Of a stretch of 38,405 nucleotides of DNA, positions 1 to 37,569 are shown piece after piece. The position numbers were made by a program, and so were the translations under genes. Where the stretch lies: the IMG/VR virus record IMGVR_UViG_2639762960_000007; one strand, 5' to 3'. Position 1 is the first letter of the stretch. The number at the start of each line of letters is the position of its first letter. Origin of the DNA: a virus. Its lineage: Duplodnaviria > Heunggongvirae > Uroviricota > Caudoviricetes. Under the pieces are notes generated by a model. That model did not search any database, was not told the DNA's origin, and saw nothing but the letters and a program-made list of their open reading frames with translations.

Positions 1-642
1 TTATTTATTGGCTACTGCATCAATACTTAAACTTTCAACGGAGACACCTTTGGTTTCAATTCCAATGGTGGCGATAGCAATTGCGACAATAATTGAAACA
101 GCCCCCAGAAGAATAAAGACTCCCGTTACGCCATAACTACTGAGCAGCACTGCAACGGCATAAGGCGCGGCAATACCACTGATTCGCCCTACCGCATTCG
201 CCAGACCGGAGCCACGGAGTTTGGCCTCTGTTGGCCAGATCTCAGGGACATACACTGCCGAGGCATAGCAAACGTACATATAGACGAAAGTAATCAGGAA
301 GAAACCAATCAGCGTTATGAGCAACATACTGGTTTGCAGTGAATAGATATATCCGAGCACCGCAATCAGGATTAATAGCCCCATCCCCATTGTTTTACGC
401 GGAATTTTATCCATCACCAGCATGGCAATAAAAATACCAAATGGCGCGCCAAACATACTCATGGTATTTAAAACAATCGAGTCTTTTAAATTAATTCCCT
501 GGGTCATGAATATCGTTGGCAACCAGTTAATTAGTGTGTACTGCACAACGTTCATGGCAATCAGCACACAAGAGCCTAATATCACGCGTTTCAGTGATGC
601 GCCGCGCGATAAATGCACTCTATCTTGTGCGATAAATGGCAT
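1..642 (-). CDS. MFS-family transporter, C-terminal half only (5'-truncated; probably a host gene interrupted by the prophage)
   Basis: Stop TAA at 1..3 (tta on plus strand). The 213-aa translation is about six hydrophobic helices, typical of the second half of a 12-TM MFS permease. An in-frame stop lies a few codons upstream of the first Met, so the N-terminal half is absent here. Confidence 0.6.
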   Translation of the reverse strand: MPFIAQDRVHLSRGASLKRVILGSCVLIAMNVVQYTLINWLPTIFMTQGINLKDSIVLNTMSMFGAPFGIFIAMLVMDKIPRKTMGMGLLILIAVLGYIYSLQTSMLLITLIGFFLITFVYMYVCYASAVYVPEIWPTEAKLRGSGLANAVGRISGIAAPYAVAVLLSSYGVTGVFILLGAVSIIVAIAIATIGIETKGVSVESLSIDAVANK

Positions 643-25100: not shown

Positions 25101-25451
25101 TTAAAGCCCCATCGCAACAGCCAGACAGACAGCTGCAACAATCAGTGCACGGCGGATTAACGCAGCAGAAAATACAAGGTGAAGGCCGGTCTGCACAGGG
25201 AAACGCCCTTCAGCCATCAGCCTGTCTTCATGTTTCAGGTACTGACCGGGACGGGCTTTGGGGAAGAGCGAACGGTCAAGCCAGTACCCCAGCACTGCTG
25301 CCAGCGTGATGAGTGCCAGCTTGTAGATCACAACAGGCAACTGCTGTGGCGAGACCAGAGCGATGATGCCCAGCAACAGCACTGAGGTCAGCAGCCAGCC
25401 GCTGAGGCGAGGTTTTTTAACAGGGGGAATGAATTTTTTCAGGTTTTTCAT
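25101..25451 (-). CDS. Holin (three predicted TM segments)
   Basis: ATG at 25449..25451 preceded by GAGGAG gives 116 aa. The track ORF opens 11 codons upstream (GTG at 25482..25484, then ATG at 25479..25481). First gene of the lysis cassette. Confidence 0.6.
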   Translation of the reverse strand: MKNLKKFIPPVKKPRLSGWLLTSVLLLGIIALVSPQQLPVVIYKLALITLAAVLGYWLDRSLFPKARPGQYLKHEDRLMAEGRFPVQTGLHLVFSAALIRRALIVAAVCLAVAMGL

Positions 25452-25565
25452 GTGTGTCTCCTCGTTTGGTGGAGACAGCATCACAAATGTGGCGGGATAC
25501 GGATTTTAAACAGCGTTAATAGTGAAGATGTAAACGTGCACTGCATGATGGCTTTGAAAGAACGA

Positions 25566-25593
25566 CCAGCCCGGTACCCGAACACCGGGCTGG
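25566..25593 (-). terminator. GC-rich hairpin (10-bp perfect stem, 8-nt loop); candidate minus-strand terminator
   Basis: ccagcccggt-acccgaac-accgggctgg; on the minus strand it is followed by tcgttctttc. Confidence 0.35.
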
Positions 25594-25698
25594 CCATCGC
25601 CCCACAGGAATGCGCTGTGAGCCGACCAAGGTTCAGTCAGTCTCGCGAGACCAGACTAGCCTGCCATATTTTTTATAATTGTAAAAGGCTTACAGATT

Positions 25699-26469
25699 AT
25701 GAAAATGCAGACATTACCCATCGTTCCATGGATTGGTGGCAAACGCCGCCTTGCAAAACACATCCTGCCGCTGTTTCCGGCGCATGAATGTTATGTGGAG
25801 CCGTTTTGTGGGGCAGCAGCGCTCTATTTTCTTAAGGTACCCGGCAAGATCGAAGTCATTAATGATATCAACGGTGAGCTGGTGAACCTGTATCGGGTGG
25901 TAAAACATCATCTGGAAGAATTTGTACGCCAGTTCAAATGGGCGCTGGTCAGCCGGCAGATCTACAAATGGCTGCAGATCACCCCGGAAGAAACACTGAC
26001 GGATATCCAGCGTGCAGCACGGTTCTACTACCTTCAGAAGCAGGCGTTTGGGGGCAAGGTGGCGGAGCACAGCTTTGGTACCTCCACCATATCCCCGCCA
26101 CGCTTCAACCTGCTGCGTATTGAAGAAGAACTGTCAGCGGCACACCTGCGGCTTTCCAGAACGGTCATAGAACACATGGACTGGCAACAGTGCATAGAAC
26201 GATATGATCGCCCGCATACGTTGTTCTACTGTGACCCTCCATACTGGGGAACGGAAGGTTATGGTGTGGAGTTCGGACTAGAAAATTATGATCATATGGC
26301 AGATTTAGCACGCAGGATCAAAGGGAAGATGATTATATCGGTGAACGATATCCCGGAAATGCGGCAGGCATTCAACGGTCTAAATATTCAGTCGGTTGAT
26401 ATCAGCTACAACCTCAAGATCACTGGCAAATCCAGTCGCAAGAAGGAACTCATTATCCTCAACTTTTGA
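25699..26469 (+). CDS. N6-adenine DNA methyltransferase, Dam (D12 class)-like, orphan
   Basis: 256 aa; ATG at 25699; motif I-like EPFCGAAAL and catalytic DPPY (FYCDPPYW); no adjacent restriction endonuclease candidate. Confidence 0.85.
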   Translation: MKMQTLPIVPWIGGKRRLAKHILPLFPAHECYVEPFCGAAALYFLKVPGKIEVINDINGELVNLYRVVKHHLEEFVRQFKWALVSRQIYKWLQITPEETLTDIQRAARFYYLQKQAFGGKVAEHSFGTSTISPPRFNLLRIEEELSAAHLRLSRTVIEHMDWQQCIERYDRPHTLFYCDPPYWGTEGYGVEFGLENYDHMADLARRIKGKMIISVNDIPEMRQAFNGLNIQSVDISYNLKITGKSSRKKELIILNF

Positions 26470-27664
26470 CCGAATAGTAAGACTTCATGCAGTGAATCAA
26501 GTACTGCATGAAGTCAAGGGCTGGTTTTGTGTACCAAAAATAAACAGTGATAGCGGTAATAATTCCCATAACTAGAACACCACGTATAATCCAGAACGTA
26601 CGTTTCTGCGTGTCTAGTCGCGCAGAAATACTGCTAAATACACCAGCCACGTCATCTTTAATGAAGGAATATTCCTTATTAATCTGTTTTTCTTTGTATT
26701 CAATTTCTTCGCCTAAGGCCTTTATAGATTGCATCTGGTTCGAAAGTGCCAGCCAGATTAACGTTGCAGCAAAAATGCATCCCAGAAGAATTATTGTGTT
26801 TGTTATCCCTTGGCCTGACCATTTCGTAGCCACTTTGAATTGGGTAGCTACGATAACAGAGGCAACAGGAATGCCAAGTATATGGTTCTGGATATCTGAA
26901 AACGCTTTGTGGATTTTACCCATTTCTTCGACTTTTGCAGCACGCAGTTGATCCATTACTTTGTCATAAGAGAATCCAGAAGAGTAGATACGATACCCTT
27001 TCAGAAACTTTTCATGCAGACGCTGAATATTGTCCAGTAAATAAGCGAATACTAGAGGTGAATCAATTCCATCACTAACTGCTTGAATACTTTCAATCAG
27101 AATATCTAGCTTCTGATCCTTATGGGTATCATCATTGAAACAAGCTATAAGGTTATCAAGATACTCCCTTTGCAAATTTTGTACATTTTCTGCAGCGAAG
27201 TGCGGTAATAGCTTGATAACTTCTTTTTTCAGAAAAACTAACTGACAAGTTGAGTTATCAAAGTAGGCCGCGGCCTCTTTTAGCAGGTTAACGAACTCGA
27301 GAATCTTCCGGTAGTTGCTGATGAAAACGGGGATATCTTCATCATCATTACGAAATTTTGTTTCTAGGATGAAGTAATTAGCTGGCTCAAGGCACTGATG
27401 CTTTGGAGCATTTAGCAATTTTTCATGGGTGGAAAACACAAGTCCCAGTCCACTCCGTGGTGACGTCACACGTAGGATGATCGTGTTACCTGGAGCGATA
27501 GTGCCTGTATCAATAGAAAGACCATATTCACGAGGATCATCAAGCAAAGTATCAACCAGATCACAATCGGACTGATCTAAGAGCAACAGCGAACCGACAC
27601 GAAACCCCTCTTGGAATTCCATACGACGATACAGAGCTGTCAGCATCTCAAATGAAATCGCCAC
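26459..27664 (-). CDS. Protein with ~270-aa soluble N-terminal domain and three C-terminal TM helices; second gene of the repressor-linked cassette (candidate effector)
   Basis: 401-aa ORF starting at GTG 27662..27664, two nt after the upstream gene's TAA, with GAGG upstream; alternative ATG at 27646. Hydrophobic segments IPVASVIVATQF, ITNTIILLGCIFAATLIWLALS and TFWIIRGVLVMGIITAITVYFWY. AT-rich codon usage. Confidence 0.65.
   Translation of the reverse strand: MAISFEMLTALYRRMEFQEGFRVGSLLLLDQSDCDLVDTLLDDPREYGLSIDTGTIAPGNTIILRVTSPRSGLGLVFSTHEKLLNAPKHQCLEPANYFILETKFRNDDEDIPVFISNYRKILEFVNLLKEAAAYFDNSTCQLVFLKKEVIKLLPHFAAENVQNLQREYLDNLIACFNDDTHKDQKLDILIESIQAVSDGIDSPLVFAYLLDNIQRLHEKFLKGYRIYSSGFSYDKVMDQLRAAKVEEMGKIHKAFSDIQNHILGIPVASVIVATQFKVATKWSGQGITNTIILLGCIFAATLIWLALSNQMQSIKALGEEIEYKEKQINKEYSFIKDDVAGVFSSISARLDTQKRTFWIIRGVLVMGIITAITVYFWYTKPALDFMQYLIHCMKSYYSVKS
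26481..26515. other. Perfect 13-bp-stem inverted repeat at the convergent junction of the methyltransferase and cassette genes
   Basis: gacttcatgcagt-gaatcaagt-actgcatgaagtc, 12 nt after the methyltransferase stop and inside the last ~20 codons of the minus-strand membrane-protein ORF. Confidence 0.4.
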
Positions 27665-27666
27665 GA

Positions 27667-28674
27667 TTAAACCTCAGTCATCCACATTTCCCTAAATTCT
27701 TCAGGTACATTACGTAGGGTGATAATATTTGTTTCCGGATCATAATCAATATAGCCTTCAGTTTTCCCTTCCCGGTCAAACTTAAGTTCCCAATATTTAG
27801 ACTTGCCTTTAAAAGATACCAGAGCCCGAATGACTCGACCATCAGGAACGAAGCCATCCGATAACTCCAACTCTTCAGCAGCAAGTTTACCAGATAACTC
27901 CTCGGGAGCCTGGGGCCAAATGGCATTAACAAGGGTTTCAAGACTAAGTGGTTCACCAGCCTTACTTAGTGCATGTAAGTGTTCAAACGCACTCTTAAGA
28001 AATGCATCTTTTTCAGCGCCGTCAAGTCCTTTCTCTGCCGCAAATGCTTTTAAAACGTCACGTAACTTTTCAGACTCTCGTTTGGCGATTAAGACATCAT
28101 TACAGCCTAGGAACTGTTTAAAATAGTTTGAAACATTACCTTGCCCCTTAAGAAAACTGATATAGCGCTCTGCGCCACTTTCCCACGCGGTTAAGTCAAT
28201 GCGCCCAGCCATACGCAGCTTAGCAATATCAAGATAGGTACTATCTTGGATGTTAAAATCATCTGTGACAGTGGACCCAATGGTAGCGCTTACAATAGCT
28301 ATCAACAGGTGTTCATTGTGTCCTATCACGATATTTGCAAAAAGAACATAACCACCAGTAGCCATGTTTTCTCGCTGAGAACGTTCCGTCAGGTGATGCA
28401 TCATTCGGCAGGAACTTTGGTAGAAATCATCAACACCTTCGAGAAAGTCCCCAGCCATTCGTTCCATAGGATAGTTATCCGTATCGCCTTCAAAATAGCC
28501 ATAACCTTTACCTGTGCGTCCTGCATATTTTGCACAAATATCGTTTATAAGGCGCTGAGAGGCTTCAGTAACTAGACCTTCTTCAGGACTCAATCTCTCA
28601 GAAGCGTCTCCATTTTGTTGTTTGTCTAAAATGTGAACTACAACGTGTTTAACTTCAATGGTCTGCTCAGACAT
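27667..28674 (-). CDS. NdpA/YejK (NA37)-like nucleoid-associated-protein homologue; first gene of the repressor-linked cassette (candidate sensor)
   Basis: 335 aa; ATG at 28672..28674 preceded by GGTGGA. It matches the length and several blocks of E. coli YejK as I recall it (GGYVLF, LLIAIVS, YLDIAKLRMAGRIDLTAWESG, RYISFLKGQG, IITLRNVPEEFRE). The family call is from memory, not a search. Confidence 0.55.
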   Translation of the reverse strand: MSEQTIEVKHVVVHILDKQQNGDASERLSPEEGLVTEASQRLINDICAKYAGRTGKGYGYFEGDTDNYPMERMAGDFLEGVDDFYQSSCRMMHHLTERSQRENMATGGYVLFANIVIGHNEHLLIAIVSATIGSTVTDDFNIQDSTYLDIAKLRMAGRIDLTAWESGAERYISFLKGQGNVSNYFKQFLGCNDVLIAKRESEKLRDVLKAFAAEKGLDGAEKDAFLKSAFEHLHALSKAGEPLSLETLVNAIWPQAPEELSGKLAAEELELSDGFVPDGRVIRALVSFKGKSKYWELKFDREGKTEGYIDYDPETNIITLRNVPEEFREMWMTEV

Positions 28675-28744
28675 TGGCTATCCACCTTATTTTTTATTGC
28701 TTAATGGCAAATAATTTCTGCTATATGTTCTCGTTAGGAACACA

Positions 28745-29152
28745 TTAACCCACATTTTTTAACCGCTCAATCGTTGCGGATAATTCCTTCAGTTGTTTTT
28801 CCATCTCAATCACACGCTGTTTTTCTTCAGCGCCTCGCATGAGATCTCGCCGAACCTCAGGATCTAACTGGTTTAGAAGTTCAAGCATTTTAAGGTCTGA
28901 CGGGCTGAATTGATGTTGTGTTGGTACAGCAACAATTTCTTTAGATGGAATATGTTCTTTACCGGTAAGTAGCCAATCGATTGATACACCCAAATGGGTA
29001 CTTAGCGCAACAAGAGCCTCTGCGTTTGGTTCTCTCTCTCCACGCAAATAGTTTTGAAGTGAGCGATATGGAATTTTTGATAAGTCAGATAATGCCTTTA
29101 TTGTCATGCCATTAGCATCCATCACTTCACGCAATCTCTCTTTTGTACTCAT
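28745..29152 (-). CDS. Phage repressor, HTH (XRE/Cro-C1 type) with C-terminal coiled coil
   Basis: ATG at 29150..29152 gives 135 aa starting MSTKERLREVMDANGMTIKALSDLSKIPYRSLQNYLRG; divergent from the early operon across an operator-like region. Confidence 0.7.
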   Translation of the reverse strand: MSTKERLREVMDANGMTIKALSDLSKIPYRSLQNYLRGEREPNAEALVALSTHLGVSIDWLLTGKEHIPSKEIVAVPTQHQFSPSDLKMLELLNQLDPEVRRDLMRGAEEKQRVIEMEKQLKELSATIERLKNVG

Positions 29153-29168
29153 TTGAACATATCTCAAT

Positions 29169-29196
29169 TTGACACACTCATTTGGGTGTGTACAAT
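29169..29196 (+). promoter_or_regulatory. Candidate early promoter (-35 TTGACA, 16-bp spacer, -10 TACAAT) overlapped by an operator-like dyad
   Basis: TTGACA at 29169..29174 and TACAAT at 29191..29196, 45 bp upstream of the Ner-like ATG; dyad ACACAC-N8-GTGTGT (29172..29191) spans the spacer. Confidence 0.5.
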
Positions 29197-29240
29197 AGAC
29201 CCAATAGAGTACATCATAACCTAACAGGAACACGGTGCAT

Positions 29241-29465
29241 ATGAACAAACAACAAGTTCGGGCACGGCTGGTTGAACGAGGCAGTAGCTTGCGCCAGTTC
29301 GCGCTTAACGCGGGCTATGAACCACGAACAGTCACCCAGGCAGTCAGTCGCTGGGCTGGTAAAAGTGAACTACCTCGCGGTCGTTTGACTTATCGGATTT
29401 TGCGAGATCTATCGGTTGCAATAGGTAAAGAAGTTACCCCCGGTATCCTTAAGGAGGCGTCATGA
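29241..29465 (+). CDS. ner: Ner-like DNA-binding protein
   Basis: ATG at 29241 (track start is GTG two codons upstream); 74 aa with LRQFALNAGYEPRTVTQAVSRW resembling the Mu Ner HTH region; first gene of the early operon. Confidence 0.65.
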   Translation: MNKQQVRARLVERGSSLRQFALNAGYEPRTVTQAVSRWAGKSELPRGRLTYRILRDLSVAIGKEVTPGILKEAS

Positions 29466-29780: not shown

Positions 29781-30692
29781 ATGGGACGCACCAAATCACC
29801 GGTTAGCACTGAACTGAACGTCGAGGTACCGCTGTCGGATGATCTCAATGTCAGTCTAAACGCCATGACACAGCATCGCATGGAAATCATGCAACAGTTC
29901 GGCGATGGTCTGCCTTATGAGCGCGATCGTGTTGTCCATGAGGCACGCTTTTATATGGCACAGAGCGCTGAGGCCATGCTGGAGGCAGGTAAGCGGCTGA
30001 TAATCCTTAAGGAAAATGAACCACACGGGGAGTTTATAAAGATTCTTGAAAGTGAGTTGGGGCTGGCATACCGGACATCTGTGAGAATGATGCAAGCATC
30101 GACAAAATACTTATCCCCGGCGCTGAAACCAAATGTGCCAACGTTGGCACATTTGGGAAAAGCCAAACTTTTCGAATTAATGACAGAAGACGACGAAGAG
30201 CTTGCCGAACTGGCCGACGGCGGCACAGTTGCCGGCCTGACGCTTGACGACGTTGATCGCATGTCAGTACGCGAACTTCGCCAGGCCCTGCGCGAAGCGC
30301 GCGAAACCAACGCAGCACAACAGCGCGTACTCGCCGATAAAAATGAAAAAATTGATTCTCTCTCTACCAGACTGGAAAAGAAATCCCGTATTCAGCTGCC
30401 TGAGCCTGATGAGGAGGTTAAGAAGCTGCGGGCGGAAGTGACAGCATTAGCGGTTGAGGCGGAATCTGCCATCGCCGTTCGACTGTCCAGCGCTTTTGAG
30501 ACACTGTGCGCATATTGTGCTGAAAACATGATTGATACCCCCAGAGACTTCATGGCAGGCCTGGTCTGTCAACTGGAAAGCACAGCGCGTAGCCTGCGCT
30601 CCACATTTGACCTGCCGGACGAGCCAACAGGCGATGTCGCGCCTTCATGGCTGACTGAGCCGACGCCACAGATTAACGGGCTGGAGGCATAA
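29781..30692 (+). CDS. Hypothetical early protein with coiled-coil central region
   Basis: 303 aa; ATG at 29781 preceded by AAGGAG; no motif I can assign. Confidence 0.55.
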   Translation: MGRTKSPVSTELNVEVPLSDDLNVSLNAMTQHRMEIMQQFGDGLPYERDRVVHEARFYMAQSAEAMLEAGKRLIILKENEPHGEFIKILESELGLAYRTSVRMMQASTKYLSPALKPNVPTLAHLGKAKLFELMTEDDEELAELADGGTVAGLTLDDVDRMSVRELRQALREARETNAAQQRVLADKNEKIDSLSTRLEKKSRIQLPEPDEEVKKLRAEVTALAVEAESAIAVRLSSAFETLCAYCAENMIDTPRDFMAGLVCQLESTARSLRSTFDLPDEPTGDVAPSWLTEPTPQINGLEA

Positions 30693-36673: not shown

Positions 36674-37123
36674 ATGCAGAAAAAACGCCTGATACAGCTT
36701 ATCCATATTGCCCGTAATGAACTGGGTATGGATGAAGACACCTACCGCCAGATGTTACAGGGGCTGACCGGTAAAGCCTCAACCAAAGGAATGGATACCA
36801 CACAACTAAACTGCGTGCTGGAATCCATGAAAAAGAAAGGCTTTCGCGTTAAACCAGCCAGAAAAGCCAGCTCCGGTTTACCGCTGGATAACCATCCGCA
36901 GTCCAGGAAAATTCGTGCGCTATGGCTTGAAATGGCTGCTGCCGGCATTGTTCGTGACCGTTCAGAAAATGCATTAGCGCGGTGGATCAAGCGGGAAACG
37001 GGCATCAGCGCCCTGCGCTGGCTCAATACTGAACAGGCAAGCAGTGTTATTGAGAAACTGAAGAAGTGGCAGCACAGAGCTGCGGGAGTAAAACATGAGC
37101 GACCTGAATCAGTTTCGAAGTAA
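36674..37123 (+). CDS. gemA: GemA-like protein (Mu gp16 family)
   Basis: 149 aa; ATG at 36674 preceded by AAGGAGA; N-terminal LIQLIHIARNELGMDEDTYRQMLQGLTGKAS matches the GemA signature; sits immediately upstream of mor. Confidence 0.75.
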   Translation: MQKKRLIQLIHIARNELGMDEDTYRQMLQGLTGKASTKGMDTTQLNCVLESMKKKGFRVKPARKASSGLPLDNHPQSRKIRALWLEMAAAGIVRDRSENALARWIKRETGISALRWLNTEQASSVIEKLKKWQHRAAGVKHERPESVSK

Positions 37124-37493
37124 AGGGCCGGAACTCCTGGTGGAGCTGGCACAGCATACCTCTGAGACCGTTCGCGAGATTATTGATATTGAGCCCGCAA
37201 TTGCCGACCAGATTGGTCAGGCCGTCGCGAACCGAATGATGCAGGTCTGGGGCGGGCAAAACGTTTATTTCCCGATGGGCATGGTATGGAAGGTCAGTCA
37301 GCGCGACCGGGAAATCTTCAGGGAGTTTAACGGACGCAACCACCACGAACTGGCCCGCAAGTTTGGTGTTTCGCTTCAGTGGGTCTACAGCGTGGTTAAG
37401 CGGGTCAGAAAAGAAGAACTGGATCGGATGCAGGGCAGGTTGTTTGATGAAGATCTGCCAGAGGAGACGAAAGACGTTAACAAATCCAGATAA
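37095..37493 (+). CDS. mor: Mor-family transcription activator (middle operon regulator)
   Basis: 132 aa; ATG at 37095 preceded by GGGAG; C-terminal HTH ELARKFGVSLQWVYSVVKR resembles Mor/C family; overlaps the gemA 3' end. Confidence 0.8.
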   Translation: MSDLNQFRSKGPELLVELAQHTSETVREIIDIEPAIADQIGQAVANRMMQVWGGQNVYFPMGMVWKVSQRDREIFREFNGRNHHELARKFGVSLQWVYSVVKRVRKEELDRMQGRLFDEDLPEETKDVNKSR

Positions 37494-37536
37494 TTCCTGC
37501 TTGTTAAAGTCCTTTCAAAAATCTCCTTATTGTATA

Positions 37537-37569
37537 AAAGCACGGTAGACCCCTTACCGTGCTTTTTTT
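37537..37569 (+). terminator. Rho-independent terminator after mor
   Basis: aaagcacggta-gacccct-taccgtgcttt followed by a T-run, 44 nt after the mor stop. Confidence 0.75.

Follow-up and report, generated by a model that had tools for sequence, protein, structure and literature searches.

A Putative Structured RNA Leader Precedes an Orphan D12-Class Methyltransferase Gene in a BcepMu-like Prophage of Escherichia coli

Genomic Context of the Methyltransferase Gene

The DNA analyzed here (the window, a stretch of 38,405 nt) is a BcepMu-like transposable prophage of Escherichia coli. Between the lysis genes and the repressor of this prophage lies an accessory region of variable content, whose commonest occupant is a module formed by a leader and a DNA methyltransferase (methylase) gene. 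The genes considered below are as follows.

25101..25451, minus strand: holin (PF13272 at 9e-42; annotation)
25699..26469, plus strand: D12-class (alpha) N6-adenine DNA methyltransferase of the M.EcoMIV family, 256 aa
26459..27664, minus strand: 401-aa protein with a C-terminal membrane segment, effector-like cassette gene (phrog_5023 at 1.9e-142)
27667..28674, minus strand: NA37/YejK-like nucleoid-associated protein, sensor-like cassette gene (PF04245 at 1e-80)
28745..29152, minus strand: HTH (cI-like) repressor (PF01381 and PF07022)
37095..37493, plus strand: Mor-family transcription activator (PF08765 at 1.1e-43)

The holin gene is the first gene of a leftward late operon (lysis, head, and tail genes) that is divergent from the methylase module, and the repressor gene is the first gene of a leftward operon that converges on the methylase. 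The repressor is 100% identical to the HTH repressor entry in the RefSeq annotation of E. coli M-17. The surroundings of the methylase comprise the holin, an SLT lysin, the 401-aa membrane protein, the NA37/YejK-like protein, and the repressor. The Mor-family gene is the last early gene, and its product is a candidate activator of late transcription.

Identification of the Methyltransferase

An orphan Dam-like methyltransferase with a DPPY motif had been proposed at this locus by a first-pass annotation of the DNA, and such a gene is indeed present as an open reading frame (ORF) with an ATG start and a TGA stop at 26467..26469. The protein matches PF02086 (E 7e-28, 98.4 bits against a cutoff of 22), with residues 11–234 aligned to profile positions 1–248 of 253, and it barely passes the broader subfamily model TIGR00571 (116.9 bits, cutoff 114.85). 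It also matches the PADLOC model MTase_II (PDLC03253) at 3.7e-115 and the PHROG family phrog_56. Alignment with E. coli Dam revealed the AdoMet and catalytic motifs W11-GGK, E34-x-F-x-G38, D56-I-N, and DPPY at residues 179–182 (nt 26233..26244). Motif I, EPFCGAAA (residues 34–41), is aligned with EPFVGAGS of Dam, the second glycine being replaced by alanine. The motif order is of the D12 type, in which the AdoMet-binding motif I is N-terminal to DPPY and the target-recognition region lies in between; both the profile and the motif order place the enzyme in the D12 class.

The GATC-specific D12 enzymes Dam, T4 Dam, and DpnM (PDB 2g1p, 2dpm) share the fold family and motif order with the methylase, which matches the sequences of 2dpm and 2g1p at 5e-17 and 1.3e-14, respectively. 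However, identity to E. coli Dam is 27%, and orthology to Dam was rejected, as the score of 69.2 bits with the Dam equivalog model NF008152 falls short of its cutoff (441). The GATC-reading loop of Dam, YNGLCRYNLRGEFNVPFGRY, aligns with FGGKVAEHSFGTSTISPPRF in the methylase, and Dam K9 is opposite a proline. The six Dam residues that read GATC (K9, N120, L122, R124, P134, and Y138) have P, G, K, A, S, and F, respectively, as their counterparts, a comparison that is indicative only at 27% identity. Because of the low NF008152 score and the replacement of these residues, GATC specificity should not be assumed for this enzyme.

Consistent with its proposed orphan status, no nuclease domain was found in the flanking genes of the window, and no cognate endonuclease gene is annotated beside the methylase in ten sampled relatives with different neighbors. 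A type II restriction-modification system was therefore rejected, given the lack of a nuclease domain among the neighbors in the window.

Distribution and Selection

Of the 5426 complete E. coli genomes searched, 556, or about one-tenth, contain a match to the methylase region, the ST131 pandemic clone included. Comparison with six relatives yielded dN/dS values of 0.04–0.14, indicating that the gene is under purifying selection. The best 120 of 7947 database hits are all at least 90% identical and come from many genera of Enterobacterales. Among sampled relatives, the cargo on either side of the methylase differs or is missing; the methylase is a backbone gene of the prophage and not a partner of the cassette.

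The prophage Phi2 of E. coli ST131 strain EC958, which is of the same kind, has a single methylase (WP_000783854.1, 89% identical to that of the window). This enzyme, M.EcoMIV, belongs to the same family, is likewise a D12-class orphan, resides in a BcepMu-like prophage, and is encoded, as in the window, between holin and repressor; its gene, too, is preceded by the leader (128.5 bits). More distantly, gp27 of phiE125 is 65% identical to the window enzyme and is likewise an orphan preceded by the same leader (96.7 bits). Unlike the window prophage, phiE125 and phi1026b are siphoviruses of the lambda-like type, and their copy of the gene comes after the lysis cassette and shares its strand.

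A Putative Defense Cassette Unrelated to the Methylase

The two minus-strand cassette genes are separated by 2 nt, and G+C content falls to ~40% over 26400–29100. The 401-aa protein hits the NCBIfam model DS1_2_antiphage at 3e-21 (below cutoff) and, weakly, PADLOC KwaA at 8e-5, and the YejK-like protein hits DS1_1_antiphage at 1.4e-17 (below cutoff). Type II PANGU/DS-1 has the same two-gene operon, whose first gene encodes a YejK-like protein and whose second encodes a protein with a membrane segment at its C terminus, although the NCBIfam DS1 models score far under their cutoffs for this cassette (63.7 vs. 330 and 75.9 vs. 315). Its architecture makes the cassette a putative, PANGU type II/DS-1-like defense system.

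One earlier suggestion was that the methylase marks self for this cassette, and the two would then form a modification-dependent defense unit in which methylation shields resident DNA from the cassette. The genes are adjacent and convergent with an 11-nt overlap, and the cassette is inherited together with the last ~250 nt of the methylase gene; the latter is, however, explained by a crossover within a conserved gene (see below). On the other hand, the methylase and the cassette occur independently. In contrast to the 556 genomes with the methylase, the whole stretch including the cassette is covered at ≥80% in only ~19 of the 5426 genomes. In Pectobacterium, the cassette adjoins the holin and there is no methylase at all, and three more distant cassette loci have no close methylase homolog. 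Furthermore, the cassette lacks a nuclease domain, and related systems consisting of a nucleoid-associated protein and an effector are described as sensing genome degradation, through release of that protein from degraded DNA, rather than methylation (bioRxiv 10.64898/2026.04.06.716658). The self-marking suggestion was thus not borne out, because the cassette also occurs without the methylase, and we regard such a partnership as extremely improbable. The cassette is a swappable cargo of the repressor operon. Both the methylase and the hairpin at the junction (see below) are ordinary, and recognizing this removes the false lead of a methylase private to a defense cassette.

The Convergent Junction and Its Hairpin

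Three features mark the junction between the methylase and the cassette.

26210..26260, no strand: recombination breakpoint in the methylase gene, seen as an identity switch in 50-nt windows
26459..26469, no strand: 11-nt overlap of the convergent coding regions; minus-strand ORF stop at 26459..26461
26481..26515, no strand: perfect inverted repeat with a 13-bp stem and a 9-nt loop; arms GACTTCATGCAGT (26481–26493) and ACTGCATGAAGTC (26503–26515)

The methylase gene is a mosaic. In 50-nt windows, positions 25560–26210 are 90–100% identical to the ST131 type. From ~26210 on, identity is 30–80% to ST131 and 86–96% to the AREA_C483/Mixta type, the latter extending into the cassette. Recombination has given the window copy 250 nt of different ancestry at its 3' end; the ST131 copy, by comparison, has three small genes inserted upstream. 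It also ends 116 nt before the repressor gene with a canonical terminator and no cargo in between, unlike the window copy. The cassette probably arrived by recombination with a crossover inside the methylase gene, at ~26210–26260. These observations identify the holin–repressor interval of BcepMu-like prophages as a site of cargo exchange, in which the conserved methylase gene serves as a recombination anchor for defense genes.

The overlap of the methylase stop with the end of the membrane-protein gene was confirmed and measures 11 nt. The orthologous ORF of Brenneria and Pectobacterium has 393 aa and a TAG stop within the 3' arm of the hairpin. In the window, this codon is AAG and the cassette ORF is eight codons longer, so the overlap results from stop-codon loss inside the hairpin arm and is a side effect, not a conserved design.

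The inverted repeat was also correctly described as perfect and as lying inside the coding region of the minus-strand gene: its arms are 100% complementary, and it occupies the last codons of that ORF (ending ...ALDFMQYLIHCMKSYYSVKS before the stop), 12 nt past the methylase stop. No other perfect inverted repeat in the 38.4-kb window is as long, and a perfect repeat of at least 13 bp was found in 0 of 100 dinucleotide-preserving shuffles. Predicted folding energies are −23.7 kcal/mol (z −3.95) for the plus strand and −21.1 (z −3.09) for the minus strand. With 13 perfect pairs, six of them G-C, the repeat has the stable stem-loop that an intrinsic terminator requires. A canonical U-tract after the hairpin is absent on both strands: the 3' flank on the minus strand is UUACUAUU (5 U in 8), and the U-run on the plus strand begins 10 nt beyond the stem. 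The hairpin was not listed by a terminator scan, because its loop is 9 nt long.

Comparative analysis suggests that this hairpin is most likely a terminator or a 3'-end stabilizer of the leftward repressor–cassette operon. It travels with the cassette and lies where relatives have terminators, and by acting as a terminator it would also separate the two convergent transcripts. We think it unlikely, although by no means implausible, that the hairpin has no function of its own and is the decaying relic of an older terminator, now translated through by the extended cassette ORF. Such a relic would agree with its location in coding sequence, the lack of a canonical U-tract, and its loss from the Pectobacterium copy, in which the cassette is present without a methylase and the hairpin has decayed. 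That decay equally implies that the hairpin may matter only at a convergent junction. Several observations argue against a relic. The arms are identical in the AREA_C483 and Mixta copies, which are ~90% identical elsewhere (estimated chance probability ~0.07). In Brenneria, 9 bp are kept with a compensatory T:A to A:T change, and a TTTTT run starts 7 nt after the stem. Moreover, the HH107/KP12 and ST131 cargo variants also have hairpins at this junction, unrelated to the one in the window.

A Conserved Leader Upstream of the Methylase

The segment directly upstream of the methylase ATG is predicted to form several helices, all of which are listed for the plus strand.

25552..25698, plus strand: conserved structured leader, 147 nt
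25560..25634, plus strand: three-way junction, P1 enclosing H1 and H2
25560–63 (GAAC) and 25631–34 (GTTC), plus strand: P1, 99% paired
25566–75 and 25584–93, plus strand: H1, all 10 pairs change on both sides
25603–07 (CACAG) and 25615–19 (CTGTG), plus strand: H2, 98% paired (AU35/GC19; AU42/UA13)
25626–31, plus strand: near-invariant CCAAGG box
25635..25657, plus strand: hairpin H3, outer stem AGTC/GACT
25658–62 (AGCCT) and 25686–90 (AGGCT), plus strand: helix H4 (element 25658..25690), 85–89% paired

A covariance model (R1) has a single match in the window, at 25552–25701 including the ATG (142 bits, E 1.7e-41). In a MAFFT alignment of 44 leader sequences, 87.4% of cells are paired, compared with 71.1% in shuffles (0/500) and 28–45% in slid-partner controls, and both partners vary in 22 of the 28 pairs. 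With 55 sequences, covariation scores 0.551 versus 0.189. None of the 500 shuffles reached the observed percentage of pairing, the covariation score, or the number of covarying pairs, and over both alignments the slid controls are 26–45% paired. The second pair of P1 exchanges GC/AU/UA at 25/23/6, and covarying P1 variants include AAGAGC/GCTCTT, CAGGGC/GCCCTG, CGGTGC/GCACCG, and GGAAGC/GCTTCC. H3 is 70–72% paired in the model alignment. Its core is a 12-bp perfect palindrome, GTCTCGCGAGAC, at 25640–25651, which occurs once in the window; relatives have other perfect palindromes at this site (GTCATCGATGAC, GTTCTCGAGAAC, CCTACCGGTAGG, and CCGTTGGCCAACGG). H4, which overlaps the Shine-Dalgarno sequence AAGG at 25685–88, shows GC to UA exchanges in either direction at two pairs. 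A single-sequence fold additionally pairs UUUUUAUAAU with AUUAUGAAAA across the start codon.

The strand on which the helices act could be assessed from mismatched pairs. H4 has 21 G-U pairs and no A-C pairs, which fits a plus-strand RNA. H1 has no strand preference (20 G-U vs. 31 A-C pairs); given this and the perfect DNA palindrome that H3 forms in most variants, some elements of the leader could function as DNA or from the opposite strand. Rfam 15 has no match at E≤1 in the window segment 25300–26700, and nine related loci gave only one sub-threshold match, on the opposite strand. Based on its compensatory changes, the leader is best described as a putative conserved multi-helix RNA element that corresponds to no listed Rfam family; a very common prophage gene carries a leader that is missing from RNA family libraries.

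The occurrence of the leader was surveyed in IMG/VR with a gene-independent sequence pattern, which retrieved >120 viral contigs, and the model was applied to 80 loci. A full-length leader was confirmed in 69 (one cut off at the locus end). Among 68 downstream ORFs read, 59 encode this methylase family and 4 are Com-like. Com-type loci that had been left out of model building also contain the leader, with matches up to E 2e-17. In phiE125, the leader (2851–2995) fills the whole gap between the end of Rz (2849) and the start of the methylase (2992), leaving no room for a promoter, an arrangement consistent with late co-transcription. The leader may act on translation.

A perfect TATAAT had also been noted upstream of the methylase. 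The hexamer is present, although at 25674..25679 and not at 25675..25680; it is located 19 nt upstream of the ATG in the variable loop of H4. Relatives have CATTGA, AATAAT, or GATAAA instead, and a consensus scan of the plus strand over 25300–25700 found no sigma-70-like promoter; no binding site for Mor was found either. Since the hexamer is not conserved among relatives and sits in a variable loop of a structured leader, it is unlikely to be the promoter of this family.

Possible Function and Expression of the Module

The com-mom operon of phage Mu contains a modification gene that is silent until late and is under post-transcriptional control by RNA structure at its start site. The window methylase is likewise a DNA-modification gene of a transposable phage, and in ~27 of 80 IMG/VR homolog loci a Mu Com-type zinc-ribbon gene lies directly upstream of the methylase (PF10122 at E 3e-13 and 9e-15 in the two such genes tested). 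Many homolog loci have the methylase at the end of the viral contig, whereas the window gene is central, between the lysis and immunity regions. Other differences were also noted. Unlike Mom, the window enzyme is an AdoMet-dependent D12 methyltransferase. There is no Com-like ORF near 25699 in the window, whose sole ORF with a CxxC...CPxC pattern (~34582) does not match PF10122, and the leader model has no match in front of Mu com, where its best score is 3.9 bits.

On balance, we favor the interpretation that the leader and methylase are a functional counterpart of com-mom, that the cassette is unrelated cargo, and that the hairpin is the 3' end of the cassette operon. The module would be nearly silent in the lysogen and transcribed during lytic growth, when translation would start within the folded leader. 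The enzyme could then methylate replicating phage DNA before packaging, so that methylated progeny resist restriction in the next host. Among the roles listed in the first-pass annotation, protection of phage DNA from restriction is the one which the evidence best supports, although the role, like the lytic timing, is deduced indirectly. The leader would tie the methylase family to the com-mom example of tightly gated DNA modification, and it could account for the apparent silence of the enzyme in methylome studies.

It is improbable, in our view, that lysogens instead produce the methylase and that its target is the host chromosome, where it would regulate epigenetically or vaccinate the host against incoming restriction-modification systems. 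The gene is located in an accessory (moron) region beside the repressor, and the window variant has the TATAAT upstream of its ATG. In addition, gp27 of phi1026b reached 21,563 RPKM in RNA-seq of a lysogen culture, and the study that reported this counted the gene among the morons active in lysogens (PMC2920897). However, the hexamer is not conserved, and a start 7 nt past it would fall inside the conserved Shine-Dalgarno sequence; moreover, homologs either are linked to com or form part of late operons. M.EcoMIV (EC958_1101) was transcribed at a level significantly below dam in mid-log LB, as measured by qRT-PCR in a single condition (low, not zero), and every m6A motif detected in EC958 was assigned to other enzymes, leaving M.EcoMIV without an assigned motif (PMC4659465). 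For phiE125, methylation was reported only on excised phage DNA after induction (Smith and Jeddeloh 2005, as summarized in PMC10688831). Such a pattern is consistent with the com-mom-like interpretation preferred here. Against it, the phiE125 induction result reportedly concerned cytosine methylation.

We consider it equally improbable that the conserved sequence in front of the methylase works chiefly as control DNA rather than as an RNA leader. In that case, H1 would be an insulator that terminates leftward transcripts entering from the repressor operon, dimeric regulators, for instance Mor, would bind H2 and the H3 palindrome as operators, and a promoter would reside in the A/T-rich stretch with TATAAT. 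Most variants of H3 stay perfectly palindromic through the center, a property for which an RNA loop has no need, and the center of H3 (25645.5) is ~41 bp upstream of the start expected from TATAAT; Mor and C of Mu use a position at about −43.5. H1 shows no strand preference and is followed on the minus strand by UCGUUCUUUCA, and the minus strand of H1 in one related locus (L041) has a sub-threshold match to the antisense RNA ctRNA_pGA1 (35.6 bits). On the other hand, P1 joins segments ~70 nt apart in at least eight covarying variants, which protein–DNA binding cannot explain. The excess of G-U over A-C pairs in H4, the phiE125 element as an intercistronic gap filler within a plus-strand operon, the lack of a second palindrome copy at the late promoter, and the lack of conservation of the −10-like hexamer also argue for an RNA.

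A more speculative extension, which we consider doubtful, is that the leader is an undescribed sensing RNA, in which the three-way junction decides the exposure of the ribosome-binding site and start codon and thereby times DNA methylation in many kinds of temperate phages. It might be a riboswitch for AdoMet, S-adenosylhomocysteine, or another metabolite, or else a binding site of the methylase itself or of a phage late protein. The D12-methyl motif of Rfam and the SAM/SAH riboswitches are likewise structured 5' elements of AdoMet-linked genes, and the leader likewise has a three-way junction whose joining nucleotides are conserved, while one of its helices covers the ribosome-binding site. 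However, neither the window nor nine related loci match any family in Rfam 15 (which presumably includes D12-methyl) at E≤1. If the leader were such an RNA, its phage range would include BcepMu-like transposable phages of Enterobacterales and phiE125-like siphoviruses, and com-led operons may use it too, as may at least one beta-class methylase gene.

With regard to the com-mom-like module itself, the methylase has been lost and the leader retained in SCU-387, indicating that the enzyme is dispensable for prophage maintenance.

Methylase Gene and Its Prophage Setting

The prophage has the same divergent gene layout as BcepMu, and one related phage record is classed as Bcepmuvirus; BcepMu itself contains no methylase between holin and repressor. 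Over the 3.9 kb surrounding the methylase gene, the window agrees at 100% identity with the E. coli M-17 chromosome and with those of other strains. The main genes are as follows:

25101-25451, leftward: holin, from which the leftward late operon (holin, lysin, terminase, head and tail genes) starts
25699..26469, + strand: methylase ORF, 256 amino acids, DPPY at residues 179-182, TGA at 26467..26469
26459-28674, - strand: cassette encoding an NA37/YejK-like protein and a 401-amino-acid protein with a C-terminal membrane segment, G+C about 40%
Next after the late operon in gene order, leftward: HTH repressor
Early operon, rightward: DDE transposase, ExeA/MuB-like ATPase, GemA and Mor

Re-reading of the sequence confirmed the first-pass annotation with regard to the methylase, its convergent overlap with the membrane-protein gene, and the perfect inverted repeat. 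The methylase protein matched PF02086 (Pfam, E 7e-28), the PADLOC type II methyltransferase model (E 3.7e-115), phrog_56 and, just over the cutoff, the TIGR00571 Dam subfamily. Its solved relatives are DpnM and Dam, with identities of about 25-27%. Alignment with Dam revealed that the AdoMet-binding and catalytic motifs are kept, whereas the hairpin loop with which Dam reads GATC is not; the roles of the loop residues in this comparison are those known from structural work on Dam. The protein also fails the Dam equivalog model (69 bits versus 441 needed). GATC sites are under-represented in the whole window, with 113 found, fewer than the 148 that base composition predicts or the 181 of a trinucleotide-based estimate. 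Judged by dN/dS values of 0.04-0.14, purifying selection on the methylase is strong.

The best 120 of 7947 database matches are all at least 90% identical and come from Escherichia, Salmonella, Klebsiella, Enterobacter, Citrobacter, Pantoea, Yersinia, and other genera. Prophage Phi2 of E. coli EC958, located between aroA and ycaL, shares the architecture of the window; its sole methylase, WP_000783854.1, is 89% identical to the window protein and is M.EcoMIV of Forde et al. (PMC4659465). M.EcoMIV was described as a D12-class orphan to which no methylation motif could be assigned, and its transcription in mid-log LB culture was significantly below that of dam (PMC4659465). The methylase is a known, widespread orphan prophage enzyme, and in this respect the finding as first described is ordinary. 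Two other identifications were considered and rejected. M.EcoGII, a non-specific adenine methylase of a cryptic prophage, is a beta-class enzyme (PMC7544214), whereas the window methylase is of the D12 class. ATGCAT methylation has been reported in a Salmonella strain with a BcepMu-like prophage; that paper draws no link to the prophage, and the motif is that of YhdJ.

A Conserved Leader Precedes the Methylase Gene

About 150 nt upstream of the methylase ATG are kept with the gene in every context, irrespective of the sequence farther upstream. This leader is the new part of the locus and the aspect worth pursuing: it is conserved and covarying, has no Rfam entry, and is closely associated with DNA-methylase and com genes of phages. 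It contains the following elements:

25560-63 with 25631-34: helix P1
25566-75 with 25584-93: helix H1
25603-07 with 25615-19: helix H2
25626-31: CCAAGG box, near-invariant
25635-57: helix H3, containing a 12-bp perfect palindrome (25640-25651)
25658-62 with 25686-90: helix H4, whose 3' strand overlaps the Shine-Dalgarno sequence

In a MAFFT alignment of 44 distinct sequences, 87.4% of the cells were paired, compared with 71.1% in shuffles (0 of 500 reached the observed value) and 28-45% when the partners were slid, and 22 of the 28 leader pairs had changes on both sides. P1, H1, and H2 were recovered independently by RNAalifold. The same architecture, with compensatory changes, recurs in IMG/VR homologs down to 65% identity and in phiE125. 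A covariance model had a single match in the window (25552-25701, + strand, 142 bits), matched all leader-type loci, and detected loci outside model building with up to 64.8 bits (E 2e-17). In these outside loci, the methylase is preceded by a Com-type gene, at whose start codon the leader ends. When com-type sequences were added, the covariation score was 0.551 versus 0.189, with P1 99% and H2 98% paired. No family in Rfam 15 matched the leader, the covariance model found no match in the upstream region of Mu com-mom, and a text search for the D12-methyl motif had no match.

A gene-independent sequence pattern of the leader was present in more than 120 viral contigs. Of 80 loci examined, 69 have a full-length leader according to the model, one of them cut off at the locus end; the downstream ORF in the other 68 belongs to the methylase family (59), is Com-like (4), probably contains a frame error (2), or is cut off (3). 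A Mu Com-type zinc-ribbon ORF (PF10122) lies directly upstream of the methylase in about one-third of 80 IMG/VR loci with methylase homologs, and in these com-type loci the leader is located upstream of the com gene:

Com-type loci: L046, L049, L051, L054-L062, L074, L079-L081, L084, L086, L090, L092, L093, L101

In the window, a small early-region ORF at about 34582 (+ strand) encodes a CxxC...CPYC zinc ribbon (MIFKCIQCERD...VCPYCSQHF), which had no match to the Pfam Com family. The Erwinia typographi locus L012 contains a partial leader (2342-2464, - strand; P1, H1, H2, and CCAAGG box; 27.8 bits), directly downstream of which is a gene for a 355-amino-acid beta-class DPPY DNA methylase (1261-2328, - strand). 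Given this copy, the leader may not be confined to D12 enzymes.

Two observations indicate that the leader is a + strand RNA. In phiE125 it occupies the entire gap between Rz and methylase inside a + strand late operon, and H4 has 21 G-U pairs and no A-C pairs, a count that decides the strand for H4 alone among the leader helices. The alternative, that the leader is mainly a DNA-level control region, appears unlikely in the face of the same H4 count and intercistronic position, although H1 has no strand preference in its G-U and A-C counts and H3 is palindromic through its center. In most variants H3 is a perfect DNA palindrome whose sequence varies by lineage, with CGCG, TCGA, CCGG, GGCC, or GTAC at the center; such self-complementarity is not required of an RNA loop. 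The palindrome GTCTCGCGAGAC was considered as a Mor or C operator and rejected, as the window has no second copy beyond chance with three mismatches allowed. On the minus strand, the G+C-rich H1 (25566-25593; -31.6 kcal/mol that way round) has UCGUUCUUUCA after it, and it could also halt leftward read-through from the repressor operon ahead of the lysis genes.

TATAAT Hexamer and Candidate Promoters

The perfect TATAAT reported upstream of the methylase start is indeed present, but one base to the left of its original placement, at 25674..25679. It sits in the variable loop between the two H4 strands, where relatives have CATTGA, AATAAT, or GATAAA, and a transcript starting about 7 nt after it would begin within the conserved Shine-Dalgarno sequence. 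Across the start codon, UUUUUAUAAU is paired with AUUAUGAAAA in the single-sequence fold; in the commonest relatives UUUUCAUU is able to pair with AAUGAAAG instead. Considering the variable hexamer, the start inside the Shine-Dalgarno sequence, and the start-codon pairing, TATAAT is better explained as part of a predicted stem masking the start site than as a promoter. The single-sequence fold also favored pairing of the CCAAGG box with the anti-Shine-Dalgarno segment. This alternative helix was set aside, as its four core pairs have no both-sided changes and the helix as a whole is only 73% paired; a four-segment switch via this helix is entertained only as a hypothesis.

A search for the methylase promoter yielded none that could be assigned: weak -10-like hexamers occur just upstream of the leader in several variants (CATGAT at 25544-25549 in the window), and their placement is inconsistent. 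The element CTATTAACGCTGTTTAAAAT (25503-25522, - strand) precedes the holin start by about 50 nt, and its conservation extends to Brenneria. The hexamer at its end, TAAAAT, is -10-like but has no accompanying -35, and the element is a candidate activator-dependent late promoter. It occurs once in the window and was rejected as a shared late-promoter motif. In KP12 and ST131, a related TAAAnnnCGTTAATAG stretch is found upstream of the leader, separated from the holin by other genes.

Cargo Exchange and the Junction Hairpin

The holin-repressor interval of BcepMu-like prophages (25452-29250 in the window; related loci L002-L006 and L018-L021) is a site of cargo exchange. Two variable slots flank the methylase in the sampled relatives, one on each side. 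The holin-methylase slot is empty or holds three small genes or a DUF2441 gene. The methylase-repressor slot is empty in ST131, 83972, and EC11, holds a 528-nt gene in HH107, AW1.7, and KP12, and holds the two-gene cassette in the window. At least four cargo states were detected among the sampled E. coli genomes. G+C content drops from about 57% to about 40% over 26400-29100 (cassette and repressor), with the methylase intermediate at about 50%. In E. coli SCU-387 other genes stand in place of the methylase, and the full leader (128 bits) remains with the first 80 nt of the gene (locus L021, 3953-4180). The remainder has given way to two unrelated minus-strand genes, which resembles a deletion or replacement scar.

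Homology between cargo variants ends exactly at the methylase stop codon. The methylase gene is a mosaic. Over 25560-26210 the window agrees with the ST131 type at 90-100% identity, and from about 26210 it follows the AREA_C483/Mixta type, unbroken into the cassette. The cassette was therefore brought in by recombination within the conserved methylase gene, with the crossover at about 26210-26260.

Features of the junction are:

26459..26461, - strand: stop codon of the 401-amino-acid membrane-protein ORF, which overlaps the methylase coding region by 11 nt
26481-26493 / 26503-26515: inverted repeat, 13 bp perfect, 9-nt loop

The repeat (26481-26515) is the longest perfect inverted repeat of the window, and repeats of at least 13 bp appeared in 0 of 100 dinucleotide-preserving shuffles. 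Every cargo variant has its own strong stem-loop 10-25 nt from the methylase stop; in ST131 the leftward repressor transcript has a canonical terminator there, whose stem is followed by UUUUGUUU. Two copies with about 10% divergence elsewhere have the window hairpin unchanged. The Brenneria version has a TTTTT run and a 9-bp stem with a compensatory pair change, T:A to A:T, and in Pectobacterium, where no methylase converges, the hairpin has decayed; more distant cassette homologs end in ordinary terminators. The hairpin is terminator-like and belongs to the neighboring cargo, and it too is an ordinary part of the finding as first described. As the U-tract is poor on both strands, we can only infer that it forms the 3' end of the repressor-cassette operon, at the meeting point of two transcripts. 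The membrane-protein ORF of Brenneria and Pectobacterium has 393 amino acids and ends at a TAG within the 3' arm of the hairpin; the window has AAG in place of this TAG and an ORF eight codons longer, which accounts for the coding overlap with the methylase.

Possible Function of the Methylase

The methylase may be a gated enzyme of lytic-phase self-modification, comparable in function to Mu mom, a reading that we consider moderately probable. Several observations point in this direction: the low transcription of M.EcoMIV in the lysogen, the coupling to com in many relatives, and the position within late operons or at the genome end. In at least 13 loci no gene follows the methylase on the viral contig, and mom has the same terminal place in Mu. 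In addition, its translation start is embedded in the conserved leader structure, and phiE125 methylation was reportedly restricted to induced, excised phage DNA (Smith & Jeddeloh 2005, as summarized in PMC10688831). It is doubtful that the methylase is instead a lysogenic-conversion enzyme; the main datum against a lytic-phase role is that the phi1026b homolog was detected in lysogen RNA-seq.

A functional link between methylase and cassette is highly improbable. The proposal that methylation marks self for the cassette was not supported, as each is found without the other: the methylase region is matched in 556 of 5426 complete E. coli genomes, compared with only about 19 in which the whole stretch including the cassette is covered, and in Pectobacterium betavasculorum the cassette adjoins the holin with no methylase at all. 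Loci of Serratia, Rosenbergiella, and Erwinia likewise have the cassette without a close methylase homolog. Cassette homologs (38-94% identity) occur in Mixta, Brenneria, Pectobacterium, Serratia, Rosenbergiella, and Erwinia. The cassette resembles in architecture the type II PANGU and DS-1 anti-phage systems, although its proteins scored far under the cutoffs of the NCBIfam DS1 models; in type II PANGU, the nucleoid protein has been proposed to report genome degradation. Since such an architecture calls for no methylation and the two occur separately, methylase and cassette are independent modules.

Other Features of the Prophage

At the left edge of the window, 1-642 (- strand) is part of an MFS transporter gene and is probably host DNA. 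Directly after the Mor gene, at 37536-37566, is a stem of 12 perfect pairs with A and T runs on its flanks (AAAAGCACGGTA...TACCGTGCTTTT); it looks like a bidirectional terminator marking the prophage's right end. The DUF3102 early gene (29781-30692) contains CCAAATGTGCCAACGTTGGCACATTTGG (30129-30156), a perfect palindrome of 28 bp.
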